Positions 1,243 to 3,097 of a stretch of DNA of 20,837 nucleotides are shown one piece after another. The stretch is from a virus (taxonomy: Duplodnaviria; Heunggongvirae; Uroviricota; Caudoviricetes). A program made the position numbers and the translations under genes. Position 1 is the first letter of the stretch, and each line of letters opens with the position of its first letter. Where the stretch lies: the IMG/VR virus record IMGVR_UViG_2537562191_000053; one strand, given 5' to 3'. Below the pieces are notes generated by a model. The model did no database searches and was not told the origin of the DNA. It worked only from the letters and a program-made list of their open reading frames with translations.

Positions 1243-1330
1243 TATTCCTCCCCTTTCCGGGATTTTCCTCAACAGTTGCGGGCCACGGTCCGGCCACAAG
1301 GAGAATCAAAAGAGGAGAACCGCAGCCCGC

Positions 1331-1361
1331 AAAACGAAAAAGGCCGCGCAGTTGCGCAGCC
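1331..1361 (-). terminator. Intrinsic terminator candidate (minus strand): 8-bp GC-rich stem with one G-U pair, 4-nt loop, followed by UUUUUCGUUUU
   Basis: Plus strand reads aaaacgaaaaa-ggccgcgc-agtt-gcgcagcc; on the minus strand the hairpin is followed by a T-rich run. Lies about 90 nt upstream of the esterase start. Confidence 0.45.
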
Positions 1362-1421
1362 TTATAAACCCTGGTTAAAATCCACACGATAAAAATGACA
1401 ATGCAAGTATCTCATGCTGTT

Positions 1422-1448
1422 GCCCGAACCCACTCGGGCTTTTTTTTG
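1422..1448 (+). terminator. Intrinsic terminator candidate (plus strand): GCCCGA-acccac-TCGGGC followed by eight T
   Basis: Perfect 6-bp stem, 6-nt loop and T8 run read directly; no convincing plus-strand CDS upstream, so it may end a short non-coding transcript. Confidence 0.5.
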
Positions 1449-1765
1449 CATGTAAAAAGGCTCCTGCGATGAGAAGCCTGGATATATGCCTAATCTCTGT
1501 ATACAGCATGATGCCGGGTGCCTCCCGGTGAATTCTGCAATGACCAGACAGAATCCGCAACTTGCCTATACAATACGCAACCAAACATCTGTCATTATGC
1601 CCCGCCGCTCAGGGGGATTCATCATGCAGGATTTTTTTAACAAACGCTCAGCATGTCAGGCAACAGTCAACTGCCTGAATTGTGAGGCATTTAACATTTC
1701 ACTGTCCGGTGTCTTTCCTGTAATAAAAAGCCCGCAAAAGAGAGTCAGGGCAGATAAGTGTGGTG

Positions 1766-1842
1766 TGGTGCGTTGTACTGGATTCGAACCAGTGACCGAT
1801 TGCTTAGAAGGCAATTGCTCTGTCCGGCTGAGCTAACAACGC
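1766..1842 (-). tRNA. tRNA-Arg (anticodon UCU), 77 nt with encoded CCA
   Basis: Reverse complement folds as a canonical cloverleaf: acceptor GCGTTGT/ACAACGC, D-stem GCTC/GAGC, anticodon stem ATTGC/GCAAT with loop CTTCTAA, T-stem ACTGG/CCAGT with loop TTCGAAT, discriminator A, CCA. Position matches argO of Stx-type phages. Confidence 0.9.
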
Positions 1843-1922
1843 AGAATACCGATAATGGACCGCCACCGGGGACTCCGAATCTCGCACAGGGTGACGTTCT
1901 TTCCTGATGAGCTAGTGGCGGT
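1843..1922 (-). tRNA. Degenerate tRNA-like element (argN-like position); probably a pseudo-tRNA
   Basis: Exactly fills the 80 nt between the two good tRNAs. Has a 7/7 complementary acceptor pair CCGCCAC/GTGGCGG, then T and CCA, and a TA-GCTC D-arm start like its neighbours, but I could not fold canonical anticodon or T arms by hand. Confidence 0.3.
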
Positions 1923-1998
1923 TGGTGGCCCTTGCTGGATTTGAACCAGCGACCTGGCGATTATGAGTCGCTCGCTCTCACCACTGAGCTAAAGGGCC
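1923..1998 (-). tRNA. tRNA-Ile2-like (anticodon CAU, lysidine type; could be called Met from anticodon alone), 76 nt with encoded CCA
   Basis: Acceptor GGCCCTT/AAGGGCC, D-stem GCTC/GAGC, anticodon loop CTCATAA, T-stem GCTGG/CCAGC with loop TTCAAAT, CCA. Closely resembles E. coli ileX-type tRNA as I recall it; position matches ileZ of Stx-type phages. Confidence 0.85.
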
Positions 1999-2038
1999 GA
2001 TTGCTGAATAATAACGACGCATGATTAACTCCGCAATC

Positions 2039-3097
2039 TCATCCGTTACGAATGATTAAATCCTGTACTTCCCGCACCGTCTGCTCAAAACGTTCAGTCT
2101 CCAGTTCAACGCCAGTTGCACGACGTCCCAGCGCCATCGCTGCTTTCACTGTCGACCCCGACCCCATGAAGAAATCTGCAACCAGGTCTCCCGGACGACT
2201 GCTTGCGCTGATTATCTGCTGCAACATTTCTGCCGTTTTTTCGCACGGATGTTTCCCTGGATAGTACTGCACCGGTTTATACGTCCACACATCGGTGTAC
2301 GGCACCTGCACCGTCACACCGAAATACCGCCGCAGATGCTTATATTCACTCTGCAGCTCCGCATACTGTCGGTTCAGAGAGGCATACGTATCCACCAGCT
2401 GGTGGTGGGGCTTTTCCAGTTCACCCCGCTGATGCTTCTCTTCTGCCACCCGGGCAAACAGTGCCTGTAATTTCAGATAATCGCTTTCGTTCGGCAGCAG
2501 CCACTGACCGGCACTGAACCAGTGCGACACCATGTTTTTCTTTCCTGTGGCATCTGCAATCTGTTTTGCCGTTATCCCCAGGACAGCGCGCGCATCACGA
2601 AAGTAAGCAATCAGCGGGGCCATCACATGCTGTTTCAGTGCCCTACCCTTCGCCTCATACCCGGCATCTTTCGGACGATACGGCCCCTGATAATGCTCTG
2701 CGAACAGAATGCGCTCTGTGGCGGGGAAATACGCCCGCAGGCTTTCCTTGTTGCACCCGTTCCAGCGTCCGGACGGCTTTGCCCAGATGATATGGTTCAG
2801 CACGTTAAACCGCTCACGCATCATGATTTCGGTGTCAGATGCCAGACGATGGCCACAGAACAGGTAAAGACTTCCGGCAGGTTTCAGCACCCGCCAGAAC
2901 TGCGCAAGACACTGGTCCAGCCACTTCAGGTAATCTTCATCACCCGCCCACTGGTTATCCCAGCCCTCGGGTTTCACTTTGAAGTACGGCGGGTCCGTGA
3001 CTATCAGGTCAACAGAATTTTCGGGTAACGACCGCATAAATTCCAGGCAGTCGGCGTTGATTAACTCAAAACTGGATATTTTTACAGTATTAAGCAT
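2039..3097 (-). CDS. DNA amino-methyltransferase (N6-adenine or N4-cytosine), beta class
   Basis: 352-aa ORF. Motif IV DPPY (DLIVTDPPY) near the N-terminus and AdoMet motif I FMGSGST near the C-terminus, the IV-then-I order typical of beta-class enzymes. Weak RBS. Confidence 0.85.
   Translation of the reverse strand: MLNTVKISSFELINADCLEFMRSLPENSVDLIVTDPPYFKVKPEGWDNQWAGDEDYLKWLDQCLAQFWRVLKPAGSLYLFCGHRLASDTEIMMRERFNVLNHIIWAKPSGRWNGCNKESLRAYFPATERILFAEHYQGPYRPKDAGYEAKGRALKQHVMAPLIAYFRDARAVLGITAKQIADATGKKNMVSHWFSAGQWLLPNESDYLKLQALFARVAEEKHQRGELEKPHHQLVDTYASLNRQYAELQSEYKHLRRYFGVTVQVPYTDVWTYKPVQYYPGKHPCEKTAEMLQQIISASSRPGDLVADFFMGSGSTVKAAMALGRRATGVELETERFEQTVREVQDLIIRNG

Follow-up and report, generated by a model that had tools for sequence, protein, structure and literature searches.

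The stretch of DNA considered here, hereafter the window, is a 20,837-nucleotide piece of a tailed phage genome (Caudoviricetes; IMG/VR record IMGVR_UViG_2537562191_000053), and our subject is the late-gene leader which lies near its beginning. Coordinates are window positions; the late genes are all situated on the minus strand, as are the features described below unless another strand is given. Read 5' to 3' on that strand, the order is rusA, a Q-type antiterminator gene, a terminator, a 65-aa open reading frame (ORF), a second terminator, a hairpin, a DNA methyltransferase gene, a tRNA gene with anticodon CAT, a tRNA remnant, a tRNA-Arg gene (TCT), a spacer and an esterase gene. The initial annotation, made from the sequence alone, had likened this arrangement to the late region of Shiga toxin (Stx) phages without stx. 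ARAGORN, Rfam, Pfam and a terminator scan located each feature at the position and on the strand which it had given, and its description is accurate to the base. We consider it very probable that the region forms the late-gene leader of a lambdoid prophage of the Sakai Sp9 type, which is non-toxigenic and lies beside potC in an enterohaemorrhagic Escherichia coli (EHEC) of the O111 lineage, and that its methyltransferase is a Q-dependent late product, its middle tRNA has decayed and its cargo slot is empty.

The relationship to known prophages is close. A prophage of E. coli O111:H- 11128, adjoining potC/potD, shares 99.9% identity with the 4.3 kb in question, as do many other O111 genomes, and at least 80% of the 4.3 kb is present in 474 complete-genome records (475 genomes). 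Window 4590-1 also matches prophage Sp9 of the O157:H7 strain Sakai, with 98.7% nucleotide identity over 4.6 kb and 3 gaps. The Sakai record gives, in this order, a "phage antiterminator" (ECs_1778), a hypothetical protein, a "DNA methylase" (ECs_1780), ileZ3, argO3 and ECs_1781, followed by lysis genes; in the 11128 record holin and lysozyme genes come after the esterase.

The gene at 3687-4229 (180 aa as an ORF, 176 aa from the RefSeq start at 4217) specifies a Q-type late antiterminator of the DUF1133 family [Pfam DUF1133, 1.1e-110], and also matches Phage_antitermQ [PF06530] at 35.1 bits against a cut-off of 26. It comes directly after the nin-region gene rusA (4226-4591), the stop codon of which it overlaps, and rusA is in turn preceded by a DUF968 gene (4592-5719). 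Both the family domain and the position are those of a phage antiterminator Q. Downstream lies a strong intrinsic terminator (3565-3600) read from the sequence, a 16-bp extended stem around CCACC-GGAA-GGTGG followed by U7, which is a candidate for tR'. The RNA fold of 3555-3690 has an energy of -49.7 kcal/mol (z = -4.9), and none of 200 shuffled sequences was as stable. Between the Q stop codon and this terminator, at 3600-3686, there is a long imperfect hairpin in which a stem of an A-run and a U-run surrounds an inner stem. The late promoter PR' and any Q-binding element should fall in this interval.

The small conserved ORF which follows (3248-3445, 65 aa) shows weak winged-helix (TrmB-like) similarity, its Pfam TrmB match (E = 0.004) lying below the cut-off. 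It is also annotated in 11128, Sakai (ECs_1779), phiP27 (L23), Stx2a_1447 and 1720a-02. Directly 3' of it the terminator scan found a second intrinsic terminator (3244-3261; fold z = -4.5). A G+C-rich hairpin of 13 perfect base pairs, with no U tract after it, is located at 3186-3224, between the second terminator and the start of the methylase gene; in Rfam it gave only a sub-threshold P26 match on the opposite strand.

The product of the gene at 2039-3097 is a beta-class N6-adenine DNA methyltransferase of 352 aa [Pfam N6_N4_Mtase, PF01555, 1.5e-41]. The motifs are in the beta-class order, with DPPY at residues 35-38 and FxGxG at 309-314 (FFMGSGS, 309-315). The protein is identical to M.EcoGII at 323 of 350 residues (92%) over its full length, the central recognition domain included; the reference sequence was taken from the supplement of PMC11551740 and is machine-read with a few obvious errors, and 92% is therefore a lower bound. 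These motifs, the central recognition domain and the high full-length identity place the enzyme in the M.EcoGII family. It also shares 94% amino acid identity with the methylase of phage 1720a-02, to which Murray et al. (2018) drew attention for its close similarity to M.EcoGII (PMC5778455). The adenines which M.EcoGII methylates may lie in any context; the enzyme is toxic if constitutively expressed, and both it and M.EcoGI are silent in lysogens, where they leave no methylation signature (PMC5778455). As judged from its sequence, the specificity of the window methylase is likely to be relaxed, as is that of M.EcoGII.

No sigma-70 consensus promoter for the methylase was found by scanning, and two terminators lie upstream of it, an arrangement which fits Q-dependent late expression. 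Since M.EcoGI and M.EcoGII, to which the enzyme is nearly identical, stay silent in the lysogen, the lysogen methylome which the initial annotation proposed as a means of finding the target motif would probably show nothing of it. The same annotation had regarded the methylase as a departure from the Stx-phage layout, a view which we cannot share. The same 352-aa methylase (86-94% amino acid identity) is found directly before ileZ in the Stx2 phages Stx2a_1447, phiP27 and 1720a-02, all with stx2 after argO, and it also precedes ileZ in 64 of 106 evaluable IMG/VR clusters. Furthermore, a 2023 survey of stx flanks describes 352-aa methylases downstream of Q, in Stx2a prophages and in strain 11128 among others (PMC10462455). 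On these grounds the methylase is a normal component of this region in one large branch of the Stx and Stx-like phages.

The two outer members of the tRNA cluster are present and intact. The first, tRNA-Ile2 with anticodon CAU (1923-1998; ARAGORN; Rfam, 72.5 bits), is ileZ, annotated as tRNA-Ile in RefSeq and as ileZ3 in Sakai; such a tRNA reads AUA after lysidine modification. The second, tRNA-Arg with anticodon UCU (1766-1842; ARAGORN; Rfam, 71.4 bits), is argO, the argO3 of Sakai, and reads AGA. Compared with Stx2a_1447, ileZ is identical (76/76 nt) and argO differs by 1 nt, with the same order and spacing. A full-text search of the literature returned no paper in which ileZ, argN and argO appear together, and these names therefore rest on GenBank and RefSeq annotation.

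The middle gene of the ileZ-argN-argO cluster, argN, specifies tRNA-Arg(UCG). It is intact in locus L002 and not intact in the window, where its slot is taken by a pseudogene of 66 nt (1856-1921), which we aligned to argN(UCG) and to a tRNA-Lys(UUU)-like variant. The element retains a perfect 7-bp acceptor stem (CCGCCAC/GTGGCGG), the discriminator base and CCA. Twelve nucleotides are deleted, corresponding to the anticodon loop and the 3' half of the anticodon stem; the T arm is broken by two mismatches and by a 1-nt insertion in its loop; and the D stem has one mismatch. The D, anticodon and T arms do not make up a canonical cloverleaf, neither ARAGORN nor Rfam called a tRNA here even at E<=10, and the predicted fold (z = -0.97) is no better than that of shuffled sequence. 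The initial annotation had described this element as non-canonical and suggested a tRNA scan, and the ARAGORN run agrees with it. The element is a decaying pseudogene and not a novel RNA. The Sakai record names no third tRNA in the 80 nt which separate ileZ3 from argO3.

The closest intact relative of the middle element is an argN-derived variant in other E. coli prophages, called tRNA-Lys(UUU) by both ARAGORN and RefSeq. This relative already bears a paired acceptor-stem change, U:A to C:G, with respect to argN, from which it follows that the change predates the decay. Examples of the tRNA-Lys(UUU)-like homologue occur in L130 (3520-3596; E. coli A20) and L008 (4020-4095); the anticodon arm is remodelled, and a C replaces the near-universal U just before the anticodon. 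In E. coli A20 the gene is part of an Ile-Lys-Thr-Gly cluster right after Q. A 115-nt probe across the middle allele of the window found at least 99% identity in at least 382 complete E. coli genomes, O157:H7 strains among them.

We classified the middle tRNA in 120 IMG/VR contigs having both ileZ and argO. An intact argN(UCG) was present in 80, a lesion of the phiP27 type in 30, that of the window in 3 and other lesions in 3; the remaining contigs carried the UUU form (2), a switch to UCU (1) or gave an ambiguous call (1). The middle member is thus degenerate in 36 of the 120 clusters (approximately 30%), and in phiP27, a phage with Stx2e, it has degenerated independently. A degenerate middle tRNA can hardly be counted as a departure from the Stx layout, as had been suggested. 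A single stx2-linked cluster among IMG/VR loci L010-L129 (allele 19) has the argN anticodon altered from UCG to UCU by one base, giving a tandem pair of tRNA-Arg(UCU) genes.

Downstream of argO, the similarity to Stx phages can be followed almost to the toxin genes. Window 3577-1725, which takes in the small ORF, the methylase, ileZ, the middle tRNA and argO, aligns to Stx2a_1447 at 90%, and this homology breaks off 41 nt beyond argO, with 55 nt still to go to the start codon of stx2A. It restarts at window 1685, 46 nt after the stx2B stop, and homology to the Stx1a phage Stx1_14040 restarts at window 1699, 40 nt after the stx1B stop. These breakpoints delimit an empty cargo ("moron") slot at 1700-1724, on neither strand in particular, with approximately 23 nt of filler. 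The stxA and stxB genes which a Stx-converting phage carries between Q and the tRNAs on one side and the lysis cassette on the other are not present, and searches of the whole window with Stx1A/B and Stx2A/B (tblastn) and with the stx regions (blastn-short) gave chance-level hits only. The flanking scaffold (Q, terminators and tRNAs; a small RNA (sRNA) pair and nanS-p) is present and collinear with Stx2a_1447 and Stx1_14040. The description of the region as a Stx-phage-like late scaffold without stx is therefore upheld, both flanks being collinear with Stx phages to within 40-46 nt of the toxin genes; the alignment to Stx1 and Stx2 flanks which the initial annotation had recommended reveals an empty site.

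In other prophages the slot holds different cargo. L001 has a plasmid-stabilization protein there, together with a transcriptional regulator and a TciA/TerB-like protein, and L008 has TerB/DUF3927. We measured the distance from argO to the sRNA core in 89 IMG/VR contigs. It was 110-145 nt ("empty") in 41, 0.2-0.9 kb in 38 and 1.16-1.46 kb, the size of stx, in 10, and the exact spacing of the window recurs in 7 IMG/VR contigs. As a site for cargo the slot is a classic one, and it is most often empty. Prophages with an empty slot are ready recombination partners for Stx phages, not oddities. Two candidate features at this site were discarded. The sequence at approximately 1725-1750, just after argO, resembles the post-argO element of Stx2 phages but gives no convincing terminator fold (z = +0.3); and the 23-nt filler, compared with the stx2 promoter region, matches at 7 of 23 positions, which is the level of chance.

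The spacer between argO and the esterase (1243-1765) measures 523 nt and contains no toxin sequence, in agreement with the initial annotation, which gave its length as about 520 bp. What that annotation described there as terminator-like hairpins proves to be two known sRNA genes together with extra hairpins. The first of these genes, at 1448-1656 on the strand of the late transcript, belongs to the STnc100 family and is related to PasD; the match to Rfam RF02076 (175.2 bits, threshold 47, E = 3e-41) is full-length, covering model positions 1-206 of 206 above the gathering threshold. This sRNA ends in a terminator hairpin at 1458-1479, and the sole minus-strand hit in the sigma-70 scan coincides with the 5' end of the match. 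In Stx2a_1447 the corresponding gene lies 75 nt after stx2B.

The second sRNA gene is convergent with the first and lies on the plus strand (1387-1446, 60 nt), with a terminator at 1422-1439 followed by a U tract. Positions 1393-1443 are an exact match to the published EcOnc03, a member of the anti-sRNA family. Rfam scores 1387-1446 at 56.6 bits for AgvB (RF02702), marginally above the threshold of 56, and at 46.8 bits for AsxR (threshold 63). We rejected an identity with AgvB or AsxR because the variable 5' end, which reads CGAUAAAAAUGACAAUGCA, equals that of EcOnc03; it is not the CA-rich 5' end of AgvB and is without the GcvB R1 target consensus. EcOnc03 was mapped in Sakai Sp9 by Tree et al. 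(2014) as an Hfq-bound sRNA of the AgvB/AsxR anti-sRNA family with a different 5' end, and the same authors described an arrangement in which convergent sRNAs separate a conserved ORF from the cargo downstream of PR' (PMC4104026). A literature search revealed no reported target of EcOnc03 and no further work on it. An exact copy of EcOnc03 occurs in the Stx1a phage Stx1_14040 (L005, 5096-5146), approximately 300 nt downstream of stx1B, and the sRNA is for that reason not confined to the cryptic Sp9 type. A spacer which looks empty thus encodes two sRNAs that would both be bound by Hfq.

The remainder of the spacer forms a structured leader ahead of the esterase (1243-1386), in which the terminator scan found a terminator-like hairpin at 1340-1363 and there is a long G+C-rich hairpin; its fold has an energy of -60.4 kcal/mol (z = -3.7). 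The sigma-70 scan gave no consensus promoter for EcOnc03. To judge from a TAAAAT motif 5 nt before position 1387, the leader probably also holds the plus-strand promoter of EcOnc03. Weak Rfam hits to P26, Leu leader, rpsB, SorY, snoRNAs and Plastid-ycf2 (antisense to ileZ) are far below their thresholds and were dismissed as chance.

The last gene, at 1-1242, encodes the N-terminal 414 aa of a NanS-p-type sialate O-acetylesterase [Pfam DUF1737, 1.2e-15; SASA, 3.5e-13] and leaves the window, so that its C-terminal part lies outside. In 11128 it is annotated as "SASA family carbohydrate esterase". The N-terminal DUF1737 and SASA domains, together with its location just before the holin gene (a position taken from the 11128 record), are those of NanS-p.

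We propose that after induction Q would allow RNA polymerase to read through the terminators, whereupon the methylase, the tRNAs and the esterase would be produced together with the lysis and structural genes. The methylase, being 92% identical to M.EcoGII, would act on adenines largely or wholly regardless of the surrounding sequence, and such general methylation would protect progeny DNA from many restriction systems; in the lysogen it would stay silent, toxicity being the presumed reason. The ileZ and argO tRNAs would supply decoders of the rare codons AUA and AGA, and the middle tRNA, as a decaying pseudogene, would have no role. Both sRNAs would act as Hfq-bound regulators of prophage origin. 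Related phages carry stx1, stx2 or other small cargo between argO and the sRNA pair, in the slot which is empty in the window.

Other explanations of individual parts have to be weighed against this scheme. One might regard the middle element as a functional, non-canonical tRNA-like RNA (an operon processing signal, a minihelix or a decoy) whose acceptor stem and CCA are under selection. The perfect stem and CCA point that way, as do the paired U:A to C:G change with respect to argN, the near-identity of the allele in at least 382 genomes (at least 99%) and the retention of the acceptor stem by most phiP27-type degenerate alleles. The paired change, however, is common to the intact tRNA-Lys-like relative and predates the decay, and the identity across genomes reflects the recent spread of one prophage module rather than constraint. 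Four separate lesions (D stem, anticodon arm, T stem and T loop) have accumulated while ileZ and argO are unchanged, the fold is like that of shuffled sequence, and both ARAGORN and Rfam pass the element over. A function is accordingly very improbable, and we retain the pseudogene. It is also improbable, in our judgement, that changing selection, and not simple neutral loss, has made an evolutionary hot spot of the middle position of ileZ-X-argO. The argument for a hot spot is that one homologous gene is found as argN(UCG), with the UCU switch, in the tRNA-Lys(UUU)-like form and with at least two independent inactivations (the window and phiP27 types), while its neighbours are near-invariant. 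Host anticodon nucleases target tRNA-Lys and tRNA-Arg, and the pattern in the middle slot could come from an arms race with them; alternatively, a remnant with intact acceptor stem and CCA could still be a processing element.

As to the methylase, a sequence-specific orphan or restriction-modification enzyme, active in the lysogen and having a discrete target motif, would be in keeping with its beta-class architecture, for among its relatives in the PDB (RsrI, CcrM, MboIIA and DpnA) the first three are sequence-specific; the best PADLOC model is "Type II methyltransferase", and the protein differs from M.EcoGII by approximately 8%. Such an enzyme is quite unlikely given that there is no endonuclease gene nearby and that the 92% identity to M.EcoGII extends through the central recognition domain, and activity in the lysogen sits badly with two terminators and no promoter match upstream and with the missing methylation signature of M.EcoGI and M.EcoGII in lysogens (PMC5778455). 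We therefore hold to a methylase of the M.EcoGII type, which would be produced late. The empty slot, too, could have another history: a former Stx phage may have lost its toxin operon by clean deletion, instead of never having had its slot filled. In its favour, the similarity to Stx phages comes to within approximately 40-50 nt of the stx operon on both sides; an Stx1a phage carries an identical EcOnc03 300 nt beyond stx1B; and an 8-nt match, CAGTGAAA, connects the 23-nt filler with what immediately follows the stx1B stop. This match is within chance, however; no stx remnant is seen at the protein or nucleotide level, the junction bears no direct repeats or insertion sequence (IS) scars, and the empty state is the commonest (41/89), with the exact spacing found in 7 contigs. 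On these data we think a deletion unlikely, though the lineage may once have held stx.

Several observations weigh against the proposed scheme. In six neighbouring ORFs the rare codons are only moderately raised, AUA to 7.9 and AGA to 4.6 per 1000 codons. The late promoter has not been located: the consensus scan gave no sigma-70 match between Q and the first terminator, and PR' is for this reason left unassigned. The methylase differs from M.EcoGII at approximately 12 of 125 positions of the target-recognition region, in a comparison in which the machine-read reference may itself hold errors, and we infer its late expression from where the gene lies and from what is published on related enzymes. 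Finally, the prophage contains two IS copies and may be defective, in which case the late programme may never run in this strain.

One of these copies, a 1.3-kb IS1203/IS629-type element at 17051-18363, splits the prophage exonuclease gene and is not found at that position in 11128; the other, at approximately 6267-7480, is the counterpart of the single copy in 11128. In the early region there is a convergent pair of genes which overlap slightly. The first (8115-9212, plus strand) matches the PADLOC model PD-Lambda-2_C (1.4e-40) and the second (9172-9750, minus strand) specifies an sce7726-family protein (NCBIfam, 1.7e-56; PADLOC "cll"). On sequence grounds the pair is a candidate for an anti-phage defence cassette carried by the prophage, although it does not amount to a complete PD-Lambda-2 system.

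Because the Sakai Sp9 and 11128 records carry the same annotated genes, the locus has long been in public annotation; every part of it has its own literature, and it is already known, with nothing new in it. The present analysis adds exact identities: the methylase belongs to the M.EcoGII family, the middle tRNA is dead, the sRNA pair is STnc100/EcOnc03 and the cargo slot is empty. As a discovery the locus matters little, and its practical worth lies in annotation.

Among known systems the nearest is Sakai Sp9 (ECs_1777-ECs_1781, ileZ3, argO3), which has the same gene order as the window, including the 80-nt gap between ileZ3 and argO3 and an exact EcOnc03. The two differ in host lineage, that of the window being O111, and in insertion site, and beyond window 4900 identity in the early region drops to 88% or vanishes. 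The sRNA pair is situated as are the convergent pairs of Tree et al. (AgvB, AsxR and EcOnc03 with EcOnc27/28), between the cargo slot and the conserved esterase ORF. The methylase has the same beta-class motif order and the same prophage location as M.EcoGII and M.EcoGI from prophages of E. coli O104:H4, and differs from M.EcoGII in length (352 against 349 aa) and by approximately 27 substitutions. Among toxigenic phages, Stx2a_1447/WGPS2, phiP27 and 1720a-02 are collinear with the window over the small ORF, methylase, ileZ, middle tRNA and argO at 84-92% nucleotide identity, and Stx2a_1447, phiP27 and 1720a-02 have, as does the window, an STnc100-family sRNA downstream and, except in phiP27, a NanS-p esterase. 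Unlike the window, they have different Q genes and carry stx2AB (approximately 1.34 kb) between argO and the sRNA. The middle gene of the cluster is an intact argN(UCG) in Stx2a_1447 and 1720a-02 and a pseudogene in the window, whereas that of phiP27 is degenerate in a different way.

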